NCBI GenBank assembly: GCA_002726495.1
Contig: PBTH01000062.1
Span: forward strand, 9,239-73,238
Reading direction: 5' to 3'
DNA: 64,000 nucleotides
Source: Methanobacteriota archaeon
GTDB taxonomy: Archaea > Thermoplasmatota > Poseidoniia > Poseidoniales > Poseidoniaceae
Part shown: positions 56 to 31,358 of the stretch, piece by piece
Position numbering within the stretch: position 1 is the first letter of the stretch
Layout: each line of letters opens with the position of its first letter
Made by a program: the position numbers and the translations under genes
The notes under the pieces: model-generated
What the model saw: the letters and a program-made list of their open reading frames with translations, nothing else
Told to the model about the DNA's origin: nothing
The model's database searches: none

Positions 56-2818
56 TTGTACTCAAATATACTCAAATCGCCTGGTACGATTTTAATTCTT
101 CTTGTCTTAATCACGGGAATCTTTGCCCAACAAGGAATGTCTTTTCAAGAACAGATTGACGATGATGTAGAAATTTTCCTACCCGACGGTGCTCCTTCTA
201 CCGATTTACTCCTTGAAGTGAGAACTGAATGGTCCACCGATTTGGCGGTCATATACATTCAAACACCAAACGCTTTCAATATCGCCGACTCAACCAATAT
301 TACCGAGCAATCTTTTCTTCAAGAAATAAGTTGGATTGAGGGTGATTCAACAAACATCAACAGCGATTCTCGTGGGAGAGGGATTGACTATGACAAAAAT
401 GACCATGGCAGAAAAGACGGTGTCCTCTGGATCATATCTCCTGCACAGGTGATCAAGGAAATAAATTCATCAGACGGCCGGTTCAACAGAGCGCTTTGCT
501 CCAATCTCATCGATGAACGTATACCGCTTGCTTTGGATTGTGATCAAGACCAAACTGGAGGCGAATACAGCATTCCAGACCAAGACCGAATTGACCAAAT
601 TATTGAAGAATCGGATGGCGGATTTGATGCATTGTTCAAGGACACCAACGACATGGACCCTACCGTTGATAGCGACGGTGATGGAAATTATACCAACGAT
701 ATGGATGGGGACGGAATTTGGGATACAACAGCCATTGTTGTTGGTATGCATCATGACCCAAGTGTGACCAAAGAATATGCTGACTTTTCTGAACTACTCA
801 ATCATTTCCAAGATGTCATTGACAATCGTCCGACTGAATATCAGAACACTGAAATGACTGTGACTGGCCTGACAAAGGTCCTCGAAGATATTTCAGATGC
901 AATCTATGAGGACCTCCTCATGATTCTCCCCTACTCAGTATTGTTCACTATACTCGTCATTACCTTCCTCCACAGGTCTGCGAAGGTTGTTGTCATCACC
1001 GGAACTCCAATCCTCATGGCTCTTGCAATCACCTTTGGTACATCTGTAATCCTTGACATCACCCTTACACCGATGATCGTTGCAACATTCCCAATTCTCA
1101 TTGGGCTAGGGGTGGACTATGCCCTGCATATGGTCAATCGAATTGAAGAGGTGCGGCGAAAGGAGATCGATAAGGCGCATGACGATAATGAACGAAGAAG
1201 AAAGCGTGGTGAGCGTGAATTAGAAGTTCCCGACATATGGAGTCTTGACTTCTACAAGTCATGTGTAATGGAAATGACACGTTCAACTGGTGTTGCTGTA
1301 TTCCTTTCTGCTTTGACGACGATTGTTGGATTTTCAGTACTCATTGCACCTGCAATTGTGCCGATTTCTCCAATTCGTTCTGTGGGAATTACTCTTGTGA
1401 TTGGGATCTTCTCCACACTTGTCCTCAGTATTATCCTCGTACCAACTCTTGCATGGTTGCTCAAATTTAACAAGAGAACAAATCCCTCAATGTGGAAAAA
1501 TATTGGGAAATTACCTGTGCGAGGCTTCCTTGTCTTGCTTCTCGTTACTGCCGCAATCACATCATATGGCATCGCGAACTTGGATGAAATGAATGAGCCG
1601 ATAACTGGGTCATCTGAGGCCCCGGATGGTATTGATTCCCTAAACTCACTTGCCCAGTACTCGCGCCAATTCAGCAGCGGACAAACTTCCCTTTTCATTT
1701 ATGATGCATCGGAACGAGAAAATGTCAACAGCTCAGTCAACATACGAGACCTCCCAGTTCTTGATTCCATGGATTCAATAGAAGGAGAAATTGACCTGGT
1801 TGATGAGACCTCTACGACCAGTATCATCACCTTCCTCAAAACCGTACCAGCTGCTATCACGCTTACCGAGGGTGTTACAATTGGCGACGGGTCACTCTGG
1901 GACTTGCTTCACGACCCGTGTTGGGAAAGTCAAGAGATTCTTGATCCAAACTGTCCCGTGTGGACCCTTATTCCAGTTTCTGAACGCGAGGCTCTTAGGA
2001 ATGATATGGTGGAAGTAGCCTTTGATACATTGTCAGAAGAGGTACGTTCAATGCTTCTCAATGAGGATGGGGATAAGGCAATTGTTTACGTCACCCAACC
2101 ATACATGAATTTGAATGTGGCAGGAGAACTTCGAGACGATATTGACGATATACTTGGTGAAGGCCCCACATTGCTCAATACAAGAACTTCCTTACTTACC
2201 GGTGGCCTGCCGGTATCTCTTGATATCAATGACGGGATTCACGACACCCAAGCCAAAACAACAATCATTACACTTATTGTCCTTACACTCCTTCTTTCAG
2301 TCGTATTCCGTTCACCGAGATTGGGAATATACACCATGATTCCTGTTGCTGTCGTCATTCTTTGGCAGCCCCTACTCATGCAAAGTGGGGACGTCAATGT
2401 CAACATCTTTACAGCGATGATTGGGACAATCGTATTTGGTATCGGGGTAGACGACGCCATTCACGTCATGCACCGAATACAGGAGGAAGGGGAATCTCCT
2501 CACGGAATGGCCTCTGCAATTGAGGAAACTGGCCAGACTATTTTTGAAACAACCATCACAACAGTTTCGGGAATCGGTGCGGGATTCCTAGCTGCATTCC
2601 CGGGATTGGAAAATTTCTTCATGCTGATGTGTCTCTTGATTTTCTTCGCTTTCATTACCAGTTCATTCCTGTTGCCAGCAATCATTACCGCAGAGCATGT
2701 GGCAAGAGCGAAAATAAATGGTCACCCACCATGGATTGATTTTGGTGATGGCATCGCTGTATCACAACCAGCGGCAATGAAATCGCTTGATGCTATCGTC
2801 ATTGATGACTCGATTTAG
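56..2818 (+). CDS. RND-superfamily/MMPL-type membrane exporter
   Basis: Two blocks of about 6 TM helices, each preceded by a large extracytoplasmic domain. Both TM blocks carry the RND/MMPL signature GxGVDYALH/GIGVDDAIH (GLGVDYALHMVNR and GIGVDDAIHVMHR). The ORF opens with a TTG (no in-frame ATG upstream; stop at 17-19), and an N-terminal TM helix is needed for RND topology. Confidence 0.75.
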   Translation: MYSNILKSPGTILILLVLITGIFAQQGMSFQEQIDDDVEIFLPDGAPSTDLLLEVRTEWSTDLAVIYIQTPNAFNIADSTNITEQSFLQEISWIEGDSTNINSDSRGRGIDYDKNDHGRKDGVLWIISPAQVIKEINSSDGRFNRALCSNLIDERIPLALDCDQDQTGGEYSIPDQDRIDQIIEESDGGFDALFKDTNDMDPTVDSDGDGNYTNDMDGDGIWDTTAIVVGMHHDPSVTKEYADFSELLNHFQDVIDNRPTEYQNTEMTVTGLTKVLEDISDAIYEDLLMILPYSVLFTILVITFLHRSAKVVVITGTPILMALAITFGTSVILDITLTPMIVATFPILIGLGVDYALHMVNRIEEVRRKEIDKAHDDNERRRKRGERELEVPDIWSLDFYKSCVMEMTRSTGVAVFLSALTTIVGFSVLIAPAIVPISPIRSVGITLVIGIFSTLVLSIILVPTLAWLLKFNKRTNPSMWKNIGKLPVRGFLVLLLVTAAITSYGIANLDEMNEPITGSSEAPDGIDSLNSLAQYSRQFSSGQTSLFIYDASERENVNSSVNIRDLPVLDSMDSIEGEIDLVDETSTTSIITFLKTVPAAITLTEGVTIGDGSLWDLLHDPCWESQEILDPNCPVWTLIPVSEREALRNDMVEVAFDTLSEEVRSMLLNEDGDKAIVYVTQPYMNLNVAGELRDDIDDILGEGPTLLNTRTSLLTGGLPVSLDINDGIHDTQAKTTIITLIVLTLLLSVVFRSPRLGIYTMIPVAVVILWQPLLMQSGDVNVNIFTAMIGTIVFGIGVDDAIHVMHRIQEEGESPHGMASAIEETGQTIFETTITTVSGIGAGFLAAFPGLENFFMLMCLLIFFAFITSSFLLPAIITAEHVARAKINGHPPWIDFGDGIAVSQPAAMKSLDAIVIDDSI

Positions 2819-2851
2819 AATGATTGGATCTCTTCACAGTCAAGACAACAT

Positions 2852-4150
2852 TCAACGGATTCTATTGGGGTTGACCCATTCATCCCAAGAAGATTCAAAA
2901 CCGACGTAATGAATGAGGTAATCTGAGTTTCTGCGTTCTCGGATAATCGCATCCCACCAGGAACCTTGCCACTCAACTTTGACCGCTTGACCAGGTTCAA
3001 AAATTTGTACATTAAATGGATGGTCCTCCGGTCGAACGGACCACCCAGTAGGACCAACAATGTAAACAGTATTTTGCGTTTCAACACGCGCTGTTGCACG
3101 TTCATCGTAGGTTACTGACACAATAGGGCTGCTTCGGAGGTTTTTGGCGTCACCAAGTTTCGGGTGAGCATAAGCGTGTCCGTAGAGCAGACCGTCTCGA
3201 ATTTCCGTATTTTGAATGAGAACTTCTGGCTTTCGTGGTTCTGCATTTGCTAACATTTCCGAACCAACAAGATATTTTGCTAATTCACGATAATTAATTT
3301 CTGAATCTTCTCCGATACCCAATTCTTGGAATTCTCTCATCACATCTTCGGGAGAAAGTGGTTCGTCACCTAATTCCGTCAATATTTTAAAATATTCACT
3401 TGCAGAAATCATGCCGCTGTTGTCGTCATCAAATACTTTAAACGCTTCAATTAATTCAAACTCAGCTTCTGAAATATGTTCGACATATTCTTGGATTTCA
3501 GGAGATTCAAGGGCCAATTTTTCAACTCGATTCCACTCAACTTCATCTTCAATATCTCCATCATCAAAATGAATCAAATAGGTATGATTCTCATGGTCCT
3601 TTGCGATTGTAGCAGGATAGTATGTACCATAATTTTTCCAATTCACGAGCACCTTATCGCCCACAACATACGGCGGTGATGCGGGGCGGATCGTTCCTGG
3701 CGTAGTTCCAATGATGACTGCTGGCTTGATTTGGACCGTATCGGTGTATGGGACTTCAATTTCATATGTGCCATCTGCATTGATGCCAATGACCTTGCAC
3801 CGATCCAACCAACGCTCATTCGTTGGACTGTAATATTCAACATGGTCACCAACCTGAAACGCAGCAGGCAATTCAACAGCTTCTGGAGGCAAGGTCGTTA
3901 CCGTTTCAGAAGGATTGGCTCCAATAACGCCAAGATGTTTCAATGCTTCAATAACCGCAGTTGTGACAACAGTTGCATCATTGTTAACCACAGTATTGTG
4001 TACAATATCACCACTCATCACGGAGTCGTTCATCGTGAAGGTGTTAGGAGCAGATTGCTTGGGGGCATCAGTGACATTTGGGGGGGCAGGAATCCATTCG
4101 GTACCTGTCCACATAAAGTTCCCATCAGGACTTAAAATAGGGTCTACCAT
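2852..4150 (-). CDS. EF-hand calcium-binding protein with three Tudor/chromo-barrel-like domains
   Basis: Three repeats of a Tudor-like pattern: VGDHVEYYSP..WLDRCKVIGI..DGTYEIEV; VGDKVLVNWKNYGTYYPATIA...YLIHFDDGDIEDEVEW; PGQAVKVEWQGSWWDAIIRE...YLIHYVGFESSWDEWV (chromo-barrel-like HYxGxxxxWDEWV). A canonical EF-hand loop DDDNSGMISASE is followed by a second degenerate EF loop. The start is placed at the internal ATG (4148-4150) because the upstream 35 codons of the long ORF overlap the RNase P RNA. Confidence 0.55.
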   Translation of the reverse strand: MVDPILSPDGNFMWTGTEWIPAPPNVTDAPKQSAPNTFTMNDSVMSGDIVHNTVVNNDATVVTTAVIEALKHLGVIGANPSETVTTLPPEAVELPAAFQVGDHVEYYSPTNERWLDRCKVIGINADGTYEIEVPYTDTVQIKPAVIIGTTPGTIRPASPPYVVGDKVLVNWKNYGTYYPATIAKDHENHTYLIHFDDGDIEDEVEWNRVEKLALESPEIQEYVEHISEAEFELIEAFKVFDDDNSGMISASEYFKILTELGDEPLSPEDVMREFQELGIGEDSEINYRELAKYLVGSEMLANAEPRKPEVLIQNTEIRDGLLYGHAYAHPKLGDAKNLRSSPIVSVTYDERATARVETQNTVYIVGPTGWSVRPEDHPFNVQIFEPGQAVKVEWQGSWWDAIIRERRNSDYLIHYVGFESSWDEWVNPNRIR

Positions 4151-4202
4151 AAATCCCCATTTCCCACGTACTCTTTGATTGTTCGGTTGAATTCTTTGAA
4201 GT

Positions 4203-4505
4203 GGAGGGAGTAGGGAGTAAGCCCCTTTCTGTTTCCTTTCGGTGATCGCATTCAACTGTGCGTCCTACCTGTTCCTCGTCGTGCCGAGTTAACGGAACGG
4301 TTTGGACTTGCTCCAGCGGGGTTGCTCGTCTCATCGACAACAGGGCAATCTCGGTCTTTCAACGTCATTGTACACACCCTGTATCGTTCGTTTCTGCTGC
4401 ATTGACCCAACCATTTCTGTTTGCTTCCTTATGTCAGCCGCTTGCACTACGGAGAGGGGACTTTCCTCAGAGTCGAACTCTGTCAGCGATCCTCCTACTC
4501 CCTCC
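4203..4505 (-). ncRNA. rnpB: RNase P RNA (archaeal type A-like)
   Basis: On the minus strand: P1 5'-GGAGGGAGUAGGAGG pairs with 3'-CCUCCCUACUCCCUC (13/15 bp). P2 GAUCGC pairs with GCGAUC. P3 is a hairpin, CAGAGU-UCGA-ACUCUG. The P4 5' strand GAGGAAAGUCCCC pairs with the P4 3' strand ACAGAAAGGGGCUUA; the bacterial/archaeal consensus is AGGAAAGUCCGGGC...ACAGAACCCGGCUUA, and the CGG->CCC / CCG->GGG swaps are compensatory. Conserved GGAGCAAGUCCAAAC, ACAGGUAGG and UGAAUG elements are also present. Confidence 0.85.
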
Positions 4506-4557
4506 AAGGTGGACTGCTCGCCTCTAACATTTCAATCCGCCGTTTTGATAAAAACCG

Positions 4558-7500
4558 TCACTGATACGGATTTTCACCGGGTGATAGTGCTTCATTAGGA
4601 GCACCATAAGGTCCGGTGGGAGGTTTTGCCTCTGCCCTTTTCACAGCAGGAGGTTGATTGGATTGTCCCAATTGAGGTTGTTGTATCTCCTCCCGGCGCA
4701 AACCGTAAACAAGCAAACCTACCAAGCCCATTGTTAGCAGACCAACAACAACGAGGAGTGATGAATTAACACTGGAAATACTACCAAGAACACCCTCACT
4801 ACGTGGCTCATCAACACGGACCGTAGAGGATTGAATACTTGGGCCATTGACGATGTTTATTTCCAGCCACATGGTACCGTCACGAGTGGGTTTCCAAGAA
4901 TAATCATACAGAATTGTCTCCCCTGATTGAATTGCAAGTGTACGTGCATCAAGTTGAGTTCGGGCCCCTGTTGATTCAACAAGGTTGACGATGATTTGGG
5001 CCTCACCATCAGCTAAACCAGTATTCGAAATCATTGTGGCTACTTCAACATAATCTCCTTGGTGAATATCTGATGTTGGGTCCATTTGTACCTTCGTAAA
5101 TGAGTAAATCGGAACGCGCTGTTCAAGAGACCAAACTCGGAGAGGTGAATCGATATCATTGAACACTTCATCGACTTGAAGGCCAGCTGCATCCATTCCA
5201 GTCACCCAAATTCGTAGTTCAACAGCGCTCGTCCGGTAAACAGGAAGCATTAACTCGTCAAGATCCAGAACGCAACGCACAGGAATTGATTCGCCAGCAA
5301 GACGTTCTCCTAAGATTTCAAGCGGTAAACTTCCATTTTCGTAAACATATGAATTGATACCCAAACCTGCTTCATTAAGAGACCAATGCAGACGAAGTGA
5401 GGATTCGTCAAGTCGTGCATTTTCATTAAGACGTAATTCAAACTGTAGGTTTTTCCAATCTTCTTCTTTCAACTCTGAATTTTCTGAAGGACGGTCGATA
5501 GCCGTGACTTTGGGTGCTTGATTGTCAACGATGAACCATATGAATGCGGAATTGTCCCCGCGGTAAATCGCTCCATTTGGTGCATCATAAAGGCCTCCTT
5601 TCAAGCCATAAGTGTCTTCAATAAGTGGCGCCATTATGGTCCCGGAAAATGTACCATTGATGGTCTCAAGTACGGCTGAATTTTCACCAAGGTCTATCGC
5701 AACATCAAGATCCTGAAGAATCGGTTGTTCAGTTCGATACCAAATAAGCGACCCTGATAGGTCAAAGGTCGTCCTTGGCTTGACCCAATACCCCATTGAA
5801 TCCGTTGCTTCATTACCGAGAGTTACAGAAAGTGATTCTTCGTCAAATACAATCTCACTGGAATACTTCCAGCCGAGTGGTTCGAGTGTAAAACGGTTGG
5901 ATTGTCCTGTTTGGTCAAGCATTGTAATGTGAGGTATACGAACCAAGGAAGTATCAGCATCATATCCCCAATCAATCGAGAAATTGGCCACAAATTCACC
6001 GTTTCTTGAGAACAAGTCATCTTCTTCCGTAGGAATCAGCGTGCATGATTCAATGTTGATGTAATTGTGGGATGAAGTACAGATTCCAGAAGATTGATTC
6101 CATGAAATTGTGGCAGGGAATGGTGTGTTTGAAGCGAGGGAGAGATTGATTTCTGCGATGTCAAAAATTCCATTCTTTTCCCAAATAGGAACTTGAATCA
6201 TGGTTGATTCACCGGGGTGAATCCATGGATTCACTCCTTGACTCCATCCGATTGAGGCAGCACCAAGAGATGGTGCACCATTGTCATTGATTTGGACATG
6301 GAAAAGAGGTGAATTGTACGTCCCTGATCCGGCCATAAGATGCCCTGCGCTGTCAGCTACCTCCAACCAACCAACAAAATAATCTCCAATAGTAGCATCA
6401 GAGGTATCAAGAACGAGTGAATAATCATCCATAAGTGGAGTCAAGTTTTCGGGCTGGTTCAAATCTTTGATTTGAACTTCATCTTGGTCCATCATTCCAT
6501 CCTGGTCCGCATCATCAATCCATGACTTCCAAACATATGCTTTGGCGTGAGTTGGTAAGTTTGGTCGGTCACTGATTGTAAAGTGAAGAGGTGTAATTGG
6601 ACTTGAATCACGATGATCAAACATTTCAACATCGGATTTAATCAGCGTTGGTGCGATGTTGTCAAAGAGGAAAGTGTATGATGTATTGACCTGGTGCACG
6701 GCTTCTTGCCCCCGCAGTGGAATAACTTCAACGCCAAGTTCCATTGAAGAGCGACCGGTTGGAATACTGTATGGGAACAGTGCTACTCCATTGGTGTAAG
6801 ATGAGGATGTCGCATATTCAGTACCATCAACCAAAAATCGGACCAAAGCCTGACCGGAGCGTGGGGTTCCTTCTTCAGTTCCTTCAAATCCAAGCACCAC
6901 CTCAATATTGACCACCTCGCCAGCCCTTAGATAATTATGAGTTGGGGTTGAACGAATTCCATTGCTTGATAGGACTGACCATGATTCAAGAGAAATGTCA
7001 TTCTCTACACCTTGGTCATCGCCAAGTCCAAAACTCGCAGAGACAGGCAACATGGGACCAGAAGGCGCAAGAAGGTTCACAGCGATGACTGCAGAAGGTT
7101 CATCGTTCCAAGAATCAGGGAACTTGAAGCGATGATTAAGTTCCAAGAAACTTCCTGAACCGAGAGCATCGATTAAGCCGGATTCACCATCGTCAAACCA
7201 AACCAAAGGAATTCCATTTGATGTACAGGTTGAGATGGTAATTGGGGTGATTGGTAGAGCACTAACAGGGCAACGAATGCTAGCTTGAGAGTTTGGAGCA
7301 ATGAGGTTTAACTCAACTTCCCAAGAGGATTGTTCAGCGTGGGTCAACGCATCTGTGACACTGATTCCTGCAAAGTCAAAAGTAGCTGAAGTTTCAATCC
7401 AATCGTTGCTTGGGACAAGCGTATTGCTGACATTGTTGACATTGATTGAGACCGGTTCAACGGAGGCTTGAGTTTGGACATCGTTGACCGTAAGCAAAAC

Positions 7501-9612
7501 AGAACCGGTGCCGTCCATTCGTACAGGGAGTGTAATTTCCTTCTCTCCTTGAACGGCTACAATCCCTGACAATGCATCATTGAGCCCGATGACGAGAGGG
7601 TCAGCTGCATTCAAGTTCAGCGACAAACTGCTATTGTAAGGCGAGAATATGCCTCCAAGGAGAACATCGCTAGAAGAGAGTGATGAGCCAATTCGAATTT
7701 GAAGTGTTGCCATTTCTAAGGACGAAATACCAACGGTATTCGTTGATGTACTAAGAGCGGTGTTGAGGGAGGAAAGTTCGGTAGAAGTTAATGTTATGAT
7801 CTGAAGGTCTTGAAGATTGGACAGTCCACGATTGAGAATGTCTTGACCGTTTACTGACATGGCCATGAATGGATTAGCAAGTTCTGTTGAGGGTGAAGCA
7901 AGAGCAAATTGAAAGGCATCAACTCCTGAGGTCGGAAGAGCAACATCAAAGTTAGCAGTACCGGACGGAGAAGAGTAAAGAAGGTTCCACATATCTCCAT
8001 TTAGCAATTCATCTTGTAATCCAAGCGAACCGATGCCGTCCCTCTCGAGAGACCACTCTGGAATTCCATCCAATCCGATGTCAAATCTAAGGCCACTGAC
8101 AACCGATGTGCGGACGAGTTCAGCCTCAAATGCATCCCAAGAGTAAGTTCCTCCTGAACTTCTCATTCGGAATTGGACCATGAATTTCGGCTCATCGAGG
8201 TCGAGATTGCCTTGAGAATTGAGGGGCAACCACGTATCGCCCCCATCGGTGGTCACTTCCATGTAACCTGGACCTGTGACTGTATTTGCAGTTTTGATGG
8301 CTGAAAAACCACTTCGCACGTGATAAACTTCGGAAACAACATCTCCACTGCTACTGATCGCTCCACTTGATTGCCATGAACCGGATTGGATGTTCCATCC
8401 ATTGTTGGTGGGGTCGTCGTCAAAGGTTTTGGAAAGATGGCCGTCAAAAGAAATACTACGTATTTTAGACACCCCGCCCCCTGAACCTTGGAGCATGTGA
8501 ATCTTCAACCGAGCCGATGGATGTTCTCGCCAATCAACAATACCAAGATCAACTTGAGTTGCAGTCATGTGCTCAAAACCAGGAATTGGCATCATCGTTT
8601 GTGCGTCCAAGAGTTGCCATTCAAAGACCGAAGATGGATCAATTGTTGCATCCATGTGCATGAATCCGTAAGAGCGTTCTTCTCCACGACCCAAATCGGT
8701 TGGTGCAAAGGTACTTGAGGTCCAATTCCCTTCTCCAGTGGAGATTCCAGATGCTGCAGGAAGAATTTCTACATCGTCAATATTCCAACCTGTATATTGG
8801 ACAGAACCATCGGATGATCCCAATCCAAAACGAACTTGGAAATTCGGATTGTTTAGAACATAATTTGTGATGGACACTGTTTGCTGAACGTAACTTCCAT
8901 CGTTGGTCGTACTTTGAGGATTTGACCATACATTGACCCAGTTTCCATTTGAGCCTTTAACAGACACATATGCATGGTCATAATACGAACTCTCAACACC
9001 GAGTCGCTTCATGAATTTAAGATTCCAAGCTCCTGAACAACCTCCACAGTTCATCACAGGTGAAGTGGCCCAGTAGGGACCTCCCATATATGTGGGATAA
9101 TTTCCGTTATAGGTGTAGATTGCCTTAGTTCCACTGCTGGCGCCAATGCTGCCATCAGTGCCGTGAAACCAAACGTTGGTGCCGCCAAGGGTGAAGGGGT
9201 TAACTCCCTCAAAATCATAACTCCATCCTTGGGGTAACAGTGCCAGTTCAGAACCGTTGACATCCATGCCATCGTATACCGAGCCCTGATCAAAATCACC
9301 TGCTTCACTCCAAGAGGAAGCCACGGAATCGCTGAGATCCGATGCTTCTATTCCAAGTTCAAGGGATTCAATCGCATGCCCATCTGGAACAGAAATACTC
9401 ACTCTCTGATTCGCACCATCCGGCCATGAGCCAACGGTAATGGCAGTTGCTTGACCCAATGTTGAGGCTTCAAATGGACTGGATATTTCGTCTTCAGGCA
9501 GGGGTTGAACTGTAGGTGTGTGAATCAATGGAATCAATGAGAATAAGAAAAGTGTGACCAGGCCGGCTGCAACGACACTACTACGGTGCGCTCCCCTCAT
9601 GGATTGAGACAT
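4558..9612 (-). CDS. giant extracellular surface protein, signal peptide plus C-terminal TM anchor, possible MAM-like domain
   Basis: 1684 aa. N-terminal hydrophobic signal (VVAAGLVTLFLFSLIPL), Ser/Thr/Asn/Gly-rich beta-type sequence throughout, one C-terminal TM (LLVVVGLLTMGLVGLLVYGL) followed by a short Pro/Lys-rich cytoplasmic tail. Residues about 150-280 resemble a MAM/jelly-roll domain (NCGGCSGAWNLKFM ... GWNIDDVEIL). Confidence 0.8.
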   Translation of the reverse strand: MSQSMRGAHRSSVVAAGLVTLFLFSLIPLIHTPTVQPLPEDEISSPFEASTLGQATAITVGSWPDGANQRVSISVPDGHAIESLELGIEASDLSDSVASSWSEAGDFDQGSVYDGMDVNGSELALLPQGWSYDFEGVNPFTLGGTNVWFHGTDGSIGASSGTKAIYTYNGNYPTYMGGPYWATSPVMNCGGCSGAWNLKFMKRLGVESSYYDHAYVSVKGSNGNWVNVWSNPQSTTNDGSYVQQTVSITNYVLNNPNFQVRFGLGSSDGSVQYTGWNIDDVEILPAASGISTGEGNWTSSTFAPTDLGRGEERSYGFMHMDATIDPSSVFEWQLLDAQTMMPIPGFEHMTATQVDLGIVDWREHPSARLKIHMLQGSGGGVSKIRSISFDGHLSKTFDDDPTNNGWNIQSGSWQSSGAISSSGDVVSEVYHVRSGFSAIKTANTVTGPGYMEVTTDGGDTWLPLNSQGNLDLDEPKFMVQFRMRSSGGTYSWDAFEAELVRTSVVSGLRFDIGLDGIPEWSLERDGIGSLGLQDELLNGDMWNLLYSSPSGTANFDVALPTSGVDAFQFALASPSTELANPFMAMSVNGQDILNRGLSNLQDLQIITLTSTELSSLNTALSTSTNTVGISSLEMATLQIRIGSSLSSSDVLLGGIFSPYNSSLSLNLNAADPLVIGLNDALSGIVAVQGEKEITLPVRMDGTGSVLLTVNDVQTQASVEPVSINVNNVSNTLVPSNDWIETSATFDFAGISVTDALTHAEQSSWEVELNLIAPNSQASIRCPVSALPITPITISTCTSNGIPLVWFDDGESGLIDALGSGSFLELNHRFKFPDSWNDEPSAVIAVNLLAPSGPMLPVSASFGLGDDQGVENDISLESWSVLSSNGIRSTPTHNYLRAGEVVNIEVVLGFEGTEEGTPRSGQALVRFLVDGTEYATSSSYTNGVALFPYSIPTGRSSMELGVEVIPLRGQEAVHQVNTSYTFLFDNIAPTLIKSDVEMFDHRDSSPITPLHFTISDRPNLPTHAKAYVWKSWIDDADQDGMMDQDEVQIKDLNQPENLTPLMDDYSLVLDTSDATIGDYFVGWLEVADSAGHLMAGSGTYNSPLFHVQINDNGAPSLGAASIGWSQGVNPWIHPGESTMIQVPIWEKNGIFDIAEINLSLASNTPFPATISWNQSSGICTSSHNYINIESCTLIPTEEDDLFSRNGEFVANFSIDWGYDADTSLVRIPHITMLDQTGQSNRFTLEPLGWKYSSEIVFDEESLSVTLGNEATDSMGYWVKPRTTFDLSGSLIWYRTEQPILQDLDVAIDLGENSAVLETINGTFSGTIMAPLIEDTYGLKGGLYDAPNGAIYRGDNSAFIWFIVDNQAPKVTAIDRPSENSELKEEDWKNLQFELRLNENARLDESSLRLHWSLNEAGLGINSYVYENGSLPLEILGERLAGESIPVRCVLDLDELMLPVYRTSAVELRIWVTGMDAAGLQVDEVFNDIDSPLRVWSLEQRVPIYSFTKVQMDPTSDIHQGDYVEVATMISNTGLADGEAQIIVNLVESTGARTQLDARTLAIQSGETILYDYSWKPTRDGTMWLEINIVNGPSIQSSTVRVDEPRSEGVLGSISSVNSSLLVVVGLLTMGLVGLLVYGLRREEIQQPQLGQSNQPPAVKRAEAKPPTGPYGAPNEALSPGENPYQ

Positions 9613-16850: not shown

Positions 16851-16928
16851 TGGTGGGCGTACCAAGATTTGAACTTGGGTCCAAGCGTCCCAAACGCCCG
16901 AGTATAGGCCAAACTAACCCATACGCCC
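16851..16928 (-). tRNA. tRNA-Pro (anticodon TGG), CCA encoded
   Basis: Minus-strand acceptor GGGCGTA/TACGCCC, T-arm CCAAG-TTCAAAT-CTTGG, anticodon stem GGGCG/CGCTT with loop TTTGGGA (U33, anticodon UGG, G37), discriminator A, encoded CCA. The D-arm is atypical (weak 3 bp stem) and the body is 75 nt. Confidence 0.7.
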
Positions 16929-21200: not shown

Positions 21201-21821
21201 GTGCGAAGGAAGAAACAAAAGGTTCCGGACGAAGCACAATCTTCGCTTGACCGGTTCTCAGGAGCCCCGAGTGAACCCGTATCACCTCATCAAGACGAAA
21301 CACCGGTTGTTCCATCAATGCCTAATTTGGATTTGTTGGAACAGGCCGAGGCAAAATTATCTCAACCTCAAGAGGATCAAATCGCGGAGAGTACAGATCA
21401 ATTGCGACGATTCCGAATGCCCAGTTCTGAACATGAAGACGCCAGTCGTCCACCAACCTCTACGATGACCTATCATGACCTTAACACCCTGTACCCCAGT
21501 GCACCCGTCCCTCTAGAAGAAGGAGGCATGGTCTTGCATAACGCTACATTGCACGACTTGACAGGATGCCACCAACTCATGGATTGGGTTGCTGATGGGC
21601 ATGCTTGTATCGTTGAAATGAAACGCCTCATCAAGAGGAAAACTGAATTCTCACAAGCGCTGAATTGGCTTCACACATTCATCGAGGGTGACCTCCAAGG
21701 CCAAATTATCCAGATGACTGAGACTCGTTTGATGCTGCTACCAGAAGGTTGCCGCGGCCTGAAAGGAACCGAGATGGAAGGCTTTGCAGTCGAACGAAAT
21801 GAGTTTACGGGCGTGAATTGA
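21201..21821 (+). CDS. SepF-like (DUF552) cell-division protein
   Basis: The C-terminal about 90 aa (MVLHNATLHDLTGCHQLMDWVADGHACIVEMKRL...QMTETRLMLLPEG) fit the SepF/DUF552 pattern. The N-terminal half is Pro/Ser-rich and disordered-like. Confidence 0.5.
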   Translation: MRRKKQKVPDEAQSSLDRFSGAPSEPVSPHQDETPVVPSMPNLDLLEQAEAKLSQPQEDQIAESTDQLRRFRMPSSEHEDASRPPTSTMTYHDLNTLYPSAPVPLEEGGMVLHNATLHDLTGCHQLMDWVADGHACIVEMKRLIKRKTEFSQALNWLHTFIEGDLQGQIIQMTETRLMLLPEGCRGLKGTEMEGFAVERNEFTGVN

Positions 21822-22459
21822 TGGACGAGCAATCCATTGACATACCATGCCCCATATGCAATGCAAGCGGGAATGTGAAAATGATCGCTCATGTTGATGA
21901 GATCCCATACTTTGGAGAGCATACACAAGTCACAGTTCAATGTCATGATTGTGGTTGGAGACAAACTGATTTTATCCCTGCAGAAGGAAAAAAACCGGGT
22001 GGTTGCTCACTTGTTATTGACAACCCAGACCTCTTGAGTGCTCGAGTTGTTAGGTCTTCTTCGTGCACTGTTCGCCTACCTGAGCTTGACCTTCAGGTCA
22101 ATCCAGGAAGCAACTCAACAGGCTATGTTTCAAACGTGGAGGGAGTATTGAATCGATTTGTAGACATCATCAATTTGGTAAAAAGAGGCCATGAAGCTGA
22201 ACTCATTGAAGCAGATTCCTCGGAAAGCAGAGAAGAACTCATGGGCGAACTTTCAACACTCAACGAGATGCTCGCCAGAATTGAATCTCTAAAAGGGCCA
22301 AAAACAATTGATGCTGTTACCATTGAATTGCTTGACCCACATGGCCATTCGTTGATACTTCATGAAAACACTGTAGAGAGAGAATTAACCGAAGCAGAAT
22401 TGCGTGAACTGCCGGTTGGCCCAGACCCAGCCGTATTTTCTCAAGATGACATGAATTAA
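21818..22459 (+). CDS. ZPR1-type zinc-finger protein
   Basis: CPICNASGNVKM...IPYFGEHTQVTVQCHDCGWRQTDF is the ZPR1 C4 zinc-finger consensus. The start overlaps the SepF-like gene stop (ATGA). Confidence 0.75.
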   Translation: MMDEQSIDIPCPICNASGNVKMIAHVDEIPYFGEHTQVTVQCHDCGWRQTDFIPAEGKKPGGCSLVIDNPDLLSARVVRSSSCTVRLPELDLQVNPGSNSTGYVSNVEGVLNRFVDIINLVKRGHEAELIEADSSESREELMGELSTLNEMLARIESLKGPKTIDAVTIELLDPHGHSLILHENTVERELTEAELRELPVGPDPAVFSQDDMN

Positions 22460-30383: not shown

Positions 30384-31358
30384 TTATTCGGAAAGGCGAG
30401 TGATCAAGTCTGCCTTCTTTCCAGAGACTGGTTTTCCGGCTGCTTTGAGCAGTTCCTTCAATTCAGCAACGGTCATTTTGCTGTAGTCTGGGGCCTCGGA
30501 GTCATCATCTTCTTCGACGTCAACAACTTCGACTTCTGGAGTTGCTTCGACTTCTGGAGTTGCTTCGACTTCCTTCTCGTTTCCGTCTTCTTCAACCGTG
30601 ACTTCAATTTCATCATCTTCACCGTCGGGTTCTTCGGCCATAGCTGCTGCCAAAGCTGCTGCTTTCTTGGCTTTGAATTCGGCATCGTCTCTTGCTTCCT
30701 TTGCGTGAATCTCGTCCAATGTTGGACCTGATGATGCAACAACACCATCTTGTAGAAGTTGACTCTTGCGAATGGCAACAGAGCGTACGGGGTAGATTGG
30801 CTTGACGCCCTTACGAATTTCCTCTTCAAGAGCACCCTCAAGAATTGCTGTTTGTACTGCTGCATAGGTGTTCTTAGCAGCAAAGGCGATGATGACTTCT
30901 CGCGTTTTGGTGCGCATGTCTTGCTTTACAGACGTCTGAACACGTTGTTGTGTAATGATAAGAGGCTTCATACGAACCAGATAACCATCGGTAGTGACGA
31001 CATCAACGACATCGTCAACCTTACCACGGTATCGGCGGATTTGACGGCGAATGTGGTCGGTTTGGTGATGGTGACCGATAAAGGTCGTAAGAGCGTCTTG
31101 GCCGACACATTCCGTTACTCGGAATCGTAGGATTACGTGCATCTTGGAGAAATCTCCTCCAAATTCTTGTTGAGTCATTTCGTAGACACGACCGATGATA
31201 TGTTCATCGGATTCACCGATTGTTTCCCCAATACGCTTGAAATCCCATGGATGGCGAGGTGCTCGAATCGTGTACCATCGCTTTGTCTTCCACTTGTCAC
31301 GTTGCTTACGTGCTGCTGCACGTGCTTTTGCACTGATTTTCTTTGCCATATTGTTCAA
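30384..31358 (-). CDS. rps3ae: 30S ribosomal protein S3Ae (eS1) with C-terminal acidic linker and SAP domain
   Basis: The N-terminal 200 aa match S3Ae (KWKTKRWYTIRAP..F..IGETIGE..IGRVYE...LRFRV). They are followed by an acidic repeat region (ATPEVEATPEVEV...EEDDDSE) and the SAP motif YSKMTVAELKELLKAAGKPVSGKKADLITRLSE. Confidence 0.85.
   Translation of the reverse strand: MNNMAKKISAKARAAARKQRDKWKTKRWYTIRAPRHPWDFKRIGETIGESDEHIIGRVYEMTQQEFGGDFSKMHVILRFRVTECVGQDALTTFIGHHHQTDHIRRQIRRYRGKVDDVVDVVTTDGYLVRMKPLIITQQRVQTSVKQDMRTKTREVIIAFAAKNTYAAVQTAILEGALEEEIRKGVKPIYPVRSVAIRKSQLLQDGVVASSGPTLDEIHAKEARDDAEFKAKKAAALAAAMAEEPDGEDDEIEVTVEEDGNEKEVEATPEVEATPEVEVVDVEEDDDSEAPDYSKMTVAELKELLKAAGKPVSGKKADLITRLSE

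Follow-up and report, generated by a model that had tools for sequence, protein, structure and literature searches.

The stretch of DNA analysed here, which we refer to as the window, comprises 64,000 nucleotides (nt) of contig PBTH01000062.1 (positions 9,239 to 73,238 of the forward strand) from assembly GCA_002726495.1, an archaeal genome of the Poseidoniaceae within the Poseidoniales, or Marine Group II (MGII) archaea. Near its left end, on the minus strand, lies a gene for a protein of 432 amino acids (aa) that contains, from N- to C-terminus, a Trp motif, a helix, a Tudor-like barrel, a 53BP1-type Tudor, an EF-hand pair, a conserved all-beta domain that we call MID and an MRG-type chromo barrel. 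An earlier note, made from the sequence alone, had described the product as three Tudor/Agenet/chromo-barrel modules with an EF-hand pair, a eukaryotic reader-domain architecture in a prokaryote. The features of the locus are as follows, AF2 denoting AlphaFold2 and pLDDT the predicted local distance difference test score.

2852..4150, minus strand: complete coding sequence, 432 aa plus the stop codon at 2852-2854, set by the open reading frame and a start common to the orthologs
4079..4150, minus strand: aa 1-24, Trp/Pro motif SPDGxFMWTGxEWIPAPP, a short beta-hairpin-like element with low pLDDT
3926..4030, minus strand: aa 41-75, DSV(I/M)xGD...INND segment and amphipathic helix (helix at 59-72 in the AF2 model)
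3701..3865, minus strand: aa 96-150, module 1, a predicted Tudor-like beta barrel recognised only in the structure prediction
aa 151-160: near-invariant linker PGTIRPAxPP between modules 1 and 2
3515..3670, minus strand: aa 161-212, module 2, a 53BP1/Crb2/KDM4A-type Tudor (Pfam, PDB profile, hhalign)
3263..3460, minus strand: aa 231-296, EF-hand pair resembling the calmodulin C-lobe (Pfam, PDB, model)
3395..3430, minus strand: aa 241-252 (D241-E252), EF loop 1, canonical, DDDNSGMISASE followed by Y
3284..3319, minus strand: aa 278-289 (G278-E289), EF loop 2, degenerate, GIGEDSEINYRE
3008..3232, minus strand: aa 307-381, MID, with the motifs GYAYAHPKLGEG, VETxNTxYVVGPTGW and DHPFN
2855..3007, minus strand: aa 382-432, module 3, an MRG/Eaf3-type chromo barrel or Tudor-knot (Pfam, PDB profile, hhalign)
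4206-4502, minus strand: archaeal RNase P RNA gene (RF00373, 226 bits, full length), ending 55 nt upstream of the ATG

The open reading frame spans 2852-4255 when it is extended to a TTG codon, and an ATG is found at 4150. Orthologs begin at an equivalent Met within an M-x-D-P sequence that matches this ATG, which is the start that the earlier note had chosen, and we rejected the longer version as spurious because its extension (4151-4255) runs into the RNase P RNA gene. The 432-aa product is strongly acidic (pI 4.46, net charge about −40); the net charge is negative on every barrel, no domain is basic, and the residues flanking the aromatic cages described below are themselves acidic (FDDGDxED, SSWDEW). 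Hydropathy analysis revealed neither a signal peptide nor a transmembrane segment, the maximal Kyte-Doolittle value over 19 aa being 1.33 and the N-terminal maximum over 10 aa being 0.30, compared with 2.5–3.0 in the secreted bacterial relatives. Using the Pfam gathering thresholds as curated cut-offs, we found that the protein matches EF-hand_7, Tudor-knot, Tudor_3 and Agenet, with sub-threshold matches to many further Tudor families, and a scan with NCBIfam gave no informative match.

A search for homologs returned 391 clusters, and the 120 listed are 58–99% identical over the full length. Where names among the matches listed carried a lineage, it was Poseidonia, Poseidoniaceae, Thalassarchaeaceae or Poseidoniales, the closest among them being a Poseidonia sp. 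protein with 87% identity, and the others were generically labelled "Euryarchaeota archaeon". Scanning one genome per GTDB species yielded 115 loci, and the records listed were all MGII-type metagenome-assembled genomes; no copy was found on the viral contigs of IMG/VR. Given the named homologs and the distribution of these 115 loci, we regard the gene as an order-level orthologous gene of the MGII archaea (Thermoplasmatota), real and strongly conserved in Poseidoniales and, on present evidence, confined to them. Some clusters were automatically named "Tudor-knot domain-containing protein", and we found no published description of an MGII Tudor or EF-hand protein in the literature searched; the family is thus already annotated by domain name, yet not described in that literature.

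The architecture varies within the family. The chromo barrel is absent, the protein ending after MID, in some lineages, for instance in L069, on a 1.5-Mb contig, P0063 and P0004, the last of which is 79% identical to the protein in the window; another form (P0016) has two chromo barrels and yet another (P0124) is without module 1. Variants of about 540 aa (P0006, P0048) contain a 110-aa insert ahead of the chromo barrel. As these variants present it, the constant core is composed of the N-terminal motif, the Tudor of module 2, the EF-hand pair and MID, and the chromo barrel is an add-on module. The insert itself, located between MID and the barrel in P0006, P0048 and P0053 (aa ~385-495) and also in L005 and L062, is rich in Trp and Gly (FYTVQGAGTxKCNGTYxPA...WWYLADRN...YYRVKS); its sole Pfam signal is a faint match to DUF6692, and it appears to be an uncharacterised domain.

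Module 2 passes the thresholds of both Tudor_3 (PF18115; 29.3 bits against a cut-off of 25.8, aa 165-209) and Agenet (PF05641; 29.8 bits against 27), and matches to Tudor_2, Tudor_5 and 53-BP1_Tudor stayed under theirs. In a comparison of its profile with the PDB the matches included KDM4A (3e-5), PHF20L1, PHF20 and 53BP1. An hhalign alignment to the first Tudor of 53BP1 (probability 91.5%) places W171, Y178, F195 and D197 on W1495, Y1502, F1519 and D1521, the residues being identical in each case, as is the FDDG motif. Four of the five 53BP1 cage residues are therefore identical; the module differs from 53BP1 in the fifth, Y1523, whose place is taken by an invariant Asp (D199). The nearest known Tudors are those of 53BP1, Crb2, KDM4A (JMJD2A) and PHF20. 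Conservation was assessed in an alignment of 57 orthologs, and in this alignment the cage residues of module 2 are invariant or at least 95% conserved.

Module 3 scores 29.6 bits against the Tudor-knot model (PF11717; cut-off 20.8, aa 386-432), and its profile matches Eaf3 (3e-9), MRG2 (5e-8) and MRG15 (3e-6) in the PDB, in addition to MRG701, ARID4A, the FMRP Agenet and MOF. When aligned by hhalign to MRG15, Y415, F418 and W422 fall on Y46, W49 and W53 (probability 97%), with IHY-x-G-F-x-S-S-W-DEWV standing opposite IHY-S-G-W-N-K-N-W-DEWV. We take the cage positions to be Y26, Y46, W49 and W53 in MRG15 and Y23, Y81, W84 and W88 in Eaf3. W394 and W398, in the first strands of the module, as well as Y415, F418 and W422, are invariant in all 57 orthologs, and W399, also in the first strands, is Trp in 55 of the 57. 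The likeness to MRG proteins that the earlier note had remarked on in the third module is thereby borne out, and the Pfam and PDB profiles did not return the assignment that it had named as the contrary outcome, a common SH3/KOW-like fold without a cage: residues at the positions of an aromatic cage are found and do not vary. A relation was also seen between modules 2 and 3 (hhalign probability 84%); in the same comparison, made against a tandem-Tudor profile, module 1 gave no alignment with the chromo barrel. From these alignments we conclude that modules 2 and 3 have the aromatic and acidic positions of reader-type cages, conserved in Poseidoniaceae and Thalassarchaeaceae, with cage residues invariant across the 57 orthologs, which are only 58–62% identical overall.

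Aromatic residues on SH3-like barrels could also serve the docking of hydrophobic peptides, and the protein could then be a structural or assembly scaffold whose barrels are generic interaction modules, for instance for Pro-rich peptides. SH3-fold barrels commonly bind peptides, the protein has invariant Pro-rich motifs of its own (WIPAPP, GTIRPAxPP), and the bacterial relatives of module 3 have architectures that parallel those of SH3b proteins (PMC5906684). The conserved residues, however, fall exactly on the cage positions of solved readers, the Asp of 53BP1 included, and do not map to the Pro-binding surface of SH3 domains, and we consider a scaffold of this kind unlikely.

To trace the origin of the C-terminal domains, we searched 1.84 billion cluster representatives with a profile of MID and module 3, which gave 2364 proteins at E ≤ 1e-3, of which 811 reach E ≤ 1e-10. 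Among the matches listed, all but a handful, which are members of the family, align over the chromo barrel alone, and this barrel is usually present in 2–8 tandem copies. The matches inspected were of two kinds. One comprises bacterial proteins (those named coming from Deltaproteobacteria and Polyangiaceae) that have a signal peptide and either no further domain or caspase, ankyrin, CHAT/TPR, WD40 or FGE-type ones; the other comprises dinoflagellate arrays (Prorocentrum, Gymnodinium). The hidden Markov model of the MGII module 3 scores MGII orthologs at 90–101 bits, a bacterial domain (P0152) at 83 bits and Eaf3 at 39 bits. Chromo-like domains with conserved cages in secreted bacterial proteins were reported by Kaur, Iyer, Subramanian & Aravind (2018; PMC5906684), who described fusions to caspase and EF-hand as well as "rare cases in euryarchaea" and inferred recognition of methyl-ammonium groups from the conservation of the cage; the supplement of that paper contains no euryarchaeal listing. 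Module 3, which is almost as similar to the bacterial domains as to its MGII orthologs, shares with them the signature W-x-G-x-W-[WY] ... IHY-x-G-[FWY]-x-x-x-WDEWV and a conserved aromatic cage, and tandem repetition is a further point of likeness. The proteins differ in that the bacterial ones have signal peptides and the associated domains listed above, whereas the MGII protein is without a signal peptide and has, besides one such barrel, the EF-hand pair, the novel domain MID and two more barrels, one divergent and one a 53BP1-type Tudor; moreover, unlike the bacterial proteins, it forms an orthologous family throughout one archaeal order. As far as sequence can tell, a location without secretion signal and the combination of domains are what sets the MGII protein apart from its bacterial relatives.

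These comparisons bear on whether the protein is a recently acquired eukaryotic chromatin reader, which would recognise marks on the histone-fold protein specific to Poseidoniales. In favour are the alignments of module 2 to 53BP1 and KDM4A and of module 3 to Eaf3 and MRG proteins, and the existence of a cluster of acidic histones with a four-fold repeat (quadruplets) that is exclusive to Poseidoniales (PMC13260811), a distribution identical to that of the family. The chromo barrel is nonetheless nearer to bacterial than to eukaryotic domains, and although its cage residues align with those of MRG15, Eaf3 and MRG2, which are readers of H3K36me/H3K4me, the archaeal protein has no MRG domain and its module 3 is optional in the family. 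MID and module 1 had no eukaryotic relatives in the searches made, and linkage to the histone gene was seen in none of the loci compared. The MGII histone, in turn, is acidic and tail-less and was predicted by its authors not to bind DNA (PMC13260811), for which reason it is a merely speculative target. We regard a recent eukaryotic acquisition as highly improbable, and the "eukaryotic" label of the earlier note does not hold: because module 3 belongs to the prokaryotic chromo-like radiation (PMC5906684), the modules are not specifically a eukaryotic import.

Of the three modules that the earlier note had proposed, modules 2 and 3 are thus recognised by Pfam, and module 1 is a predicted Tudor-like barrel on account of its modelled structure, with strands at 103-108, 113-123, 129-135 and 138-144 in the AF2 model. 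Y106, W114 and Y129 are invariant in it, and Foldseek matched it to the SGF29 and Agenet tandems and to the triple Tudor of SETDB1. Module 1 by itself had no Pfam match, matches to SGF29_Tudor and DUF4537 that span modules 1 and 2 were weak and below threshold, and the module was not found outside the family among 156 sequences scanned from the search of cluster representatives; it has no detectable sequence similarity to the second Tudor of 53BP1 or SGF29.

The AF2 model of the full protein has a pLDDT of 70.8 (70–89 for single domains) and a predicted template modelling score (pTM) of 0.46, with barrels at all four beta regions. Foldseek searches with this model matched the four Agenet domains of AGDP3 (AGD1-4; E 7e-8), the SETDB1 triple Tudor, SGF29, ADCP1 and the KOW arrays of Spt5. 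The AGDP3, SETDB1, SGF29 and ADCP1 arrays, which are methyl-histone readers, likewise have several SH3-like barrels per chain (Foldseek E 7e-8 to 1e-3), but template modelling scores are 0.13, which is low because the relative placement of the domains is uncertain in the model, identity is 13–16%, and none of those arrays has an EF-hand insertion.

MID, a fourth beta domain, had not been reported in the earlier note. It is highly conserved and, when modelled by itself with AF2, forms six strands with a pLDDT of 86. No match to MID was found in Pfam or among PDB sequences, a fold search in the PDB gave nothing significant (the best match being the RFTS domain of DNMT1, E 0.11), and hhalign revealed no relation between MID and the chromo barrel. 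Its fold weakly resembles small uncharacterised phage proteins (template modelling scores 0.55–0.64, E ~1e-3). Within these searches, MID is a domain without known family. Outside the MGII family it was found only in a metagenomic 362-aa protein (P0189/P0292), and because that protein has a signal peptide and C-terminal transmembrane helices, MID appears not to be confined to cytoplasmic contexts.

At the N-terminus, S7, P8, D9, G10, W14, G16, W19, P21, P23 and P24 are invariant. The Trp-rich motif seen by the earlier note is therefore real, but its likeness to DUF4339 was not upheld: we dropped the DUF4339/GYF label, as neither DUF4339 nor GYF_2 matched at E ≤ 10 with the full protein or at E ≤ 1 with aa 1-95, and aa 1-24 had no Pfam match at all. 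The adjacent segment, aa 41-75, has a mean column identity of 0.87 and no family match in Pfam. An unrelated plus-strand open reading frame at two other loci (L039, at ~1189, and L043, at ~325) ends in ...NGVTWHRQPDGVLLYWDGDAWVP, which resembles the N-terminal SPDGxxxWxGxxWxP and suggests that the Trp hairpin is a short motif reused among MGII proteins.

The EF-hand pair passes EF-hand_7 (PF13499; 34.2 bits against a cut-off of 30, aa 231-293), comprises four helices in the AF2 model and retrieved calmodulins from the PDB with E values of 1e-14 to 1e-11 over aa 227-295. It shares with the C-lobe of calmodulin the helix-loop-helix pair and, in this protein, a canonical loop 1; it differs in being a single pair inside a multidomain protein and in the state of its loops across the family. 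As the earlier note had it, one loop is canonical and the second degenerate: PROSITE PS00018 matches the protein exactly at a single place, DDDNSGMISASE at aa 241, and a canonical loop in both hands is excluded by loop 2, where Gly occupies position 1 in 56 of the 57 aligned sequences and Ser replaces the consensus Gly of position 6 in 55 of them. We then surveyed loop 1 in the 109 homologs in which it could be located and found a match to PS00018 in 23 of them (~21%); in 69 (63%) the bidentate Glu at −Z (position 12) is replaced by Lys, and residues at this position in the remaining homologs include Gln, Leu, Met, Thr and Arg.

A calcium switch was considered on these grounds, in which the EF-hand pair would sense cytosolic Ca2+ and gate the flanking barrels as a conserved mechanism of the family. 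The perfect PS00018 match of loop 1, the strong similarity to calmodulin and the central position of the pair between the barrel groups speak for it. With loop 1 canonical in about a fifth of the homologs, Lys at −Z in most and Gly at position 1 of loop 2 family-wide, however, Ca2+ control is not a conserved family mechanism, and we give the switch a small chance. Even so, column identity averages 0.84 over the EF region, a conservation equal to that of the barrels, which points to a role independent of Ca2+, and we conclude that the pair serves the family as a conserved module for structure or interaction. For the protein in the window and its subclade Ca2+ binding is plausible, so that the regulation by calcium envisaged in the earlier note may apply here but not as a mechanism of the family.

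Taken with the conservation of the cages, our preferred reading, which we hold with moderate confidence, is that the protein works in the cytoplasm as a multivalent reader or adaptor and that its cages recognise partner proteins by their methylated or quaternary ammonium groups. The protein is built from chromo-like and Tudor barrels of prokaryotic type, and each cage would hold one such group through cation-pi contacts; candidates on the partner are lysine with one to three methyl groups, methyl-arginine or a comparable trimethylammonium moiety. The strongly acidic character of the protein, down to its single barrels, favours cationic ligands and disfavours nucleic acids. Asp197 gives module 2 the acidic cage residue that 53BP1 also has, and this module may prefer a lower methylation state. 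With several barrels joined by flexible linkers, binding would be multivalent, and the optional chromo barrel (absent, single or doubled) could adjust the valency. The EF-hand pair would act mainly as a structural or partner-binding hinge, a response to Ca2+ probably being limited to those lineages, a minority, in which loop 1 is canonical, this Poseidonia-type protein included. These statements on ligand class, multivalency and EF-hand pair are what we infer from the domains and their conservation.

Several points weigh against this reading. The aromatic residues could be kept partly for the stability of the fold. To our knowledge, lysine or arginine methylation of proteins is undocumented in MGII, which are uncultured archaea. 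The chromo barrel is dispensable in several lineages, and the gene neighbourhood is not conserved and hence offers no operon clue. Finally, the closest bacterial homologs are extracellular, and the ligand class may therefore not transfer to a cytoplasmic protein.

A bolder possibility, to which we assign a low likelihood, is that the Poseidoniales possess an intracellular signalling system of their own based on protein methylation or trimethylammonium marks, with the multi-cage protein as its dedicated reader, modulated by Ca2+ in some lineages. Possible targets would then be the order-specific histone-fold protein or components of translation or of ribonucleoproteins, and a writer-reader logic would have been built from bacterial extracellular chromo-like domains independently of eukaryotes.

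According to large surveys, prokaryotes have virtually no readers of histone marks (Grau-Bové et al., bioRxiv 10.1101/2021.11.30.470311), and the known bacterial chromo-like domains are extracellular (PMC5906684). Prokaryotic chromo-like and Tudor proteins are thus already known as a kind, and what is new is the combination: an archaeal order very abundant in the ocean keeps a 53BP1-like Tudor cage and an MRG-like chromo-barrel cage in a cytoplasmic protein subject to strong purifying selection. Should methylated residues prove to be what the cages bind, multivalent "reader" logic would have originated outside eukaryotes as well, and recombinant domains together with cage mutants would provide a handle on the targets of protein methylation in uncultured MGII. 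The natural E/K variants of the EF loop and the variants with and without the chromo barrel would be useful for dissecting function.

The genes next to the orthologs differ across seven loci from different MGII lineages, and we therefore set operon context aside as a functional clue. Stable RNA genes recur as neighbours: the gene lies 55 nt downstream of the RNase P RNA gene in the window and at two other loci (L009 and L010), and a similar distance, about 55 nt, separates it from an upstream signal recognition particle (SRP) RNA gene in five species loci and from an upstream tRNA-Ser in two; a further few loci have it adjoining other tRNAs (tRNA-Gln, tRNA-Arg). The RNA-adjacent loci include L001 (7638-7945), L008 (4384-4691), L003 (7860-7942), L014, L025, L032, L036, L029, L069, L018 and L080. 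An RNA gene was present within 300 nt in about 12 of the 80 GTDB species loci, with at least four different stable RNAs as neighbours, which exceeds the expectation from gene density; most of the 80 have no RNA gene within 3 kb. The 55-nt gaps each hold a promoter-like AT-rich box of their own. In view of the minority of loci, the variety of RNAs and these boxes, the adjacency was not accepted as functional evidence, and it may come from rearrangement hot spots or from tight packing beside strong RNA genes.

The RNA neighbours are part of the case for a nucleic-acid binder, whose barrels would contact RNA or DNA, an activity reported for certain Tudor-knot, chromo and Tudor domains, perhaps on stable ribonucleoproteins, and Pfam describes the Tudor-knot as an RNA-binding knot. 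Beyond the limited and inconsistent adjacency, this is opposed by the acidity of the protein, which has no basic domain, and by the conserved positions, which are those of the methyl-ammonium cage; we think such a function distinctly improbable and retain the preferred reading of an ammonium-binding reader or adaptor.

Other features of the window and of related loci were noted in passing. Upstream of the RNase P RNA gene, 4558-9612 on the minus strand encodes a 1684-aa protein with an N-terminal signal-like segment, a C-terminal transmembrane anchor and no Pfam match, which is probably a giant surface protein, and giant open reading frames (1677–2172 aa) flank the Tudor gene in other lineages too. 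At a Thalassarchaeaceae-type locus (L006) the divergent upstream neighbour (1107-4805, minus strand) encodes a 1232-aa protein with weak EF-hand matches. ARAGORN identified a 78-nt tRNA-Pro(tgg) at 16851-16928 on the minus strand of the window, with the anticodon at position 37, and the Rfam tRNA model was silent there at its gathering threshold; this tRNA may be atypical or intron-bearing. A ZPR1-type zinc-ribbon and jelly-roll protein is encoded at 21818-22459 on the plus strand. Eukaryotic ZPR1 partners with the Tudor protein SMN, and the presence of a ZPR1 gene in the window is probably a coincidence. The archaeal ribosomal protein S3Ae (eS1) encoded at 30384-31358 on the minus strand has a C-terminal SAP domain (PF02037, 48 bits, aa 291-322), a motif that is associated with DNA and chromatin and is typical of eukaryotes.

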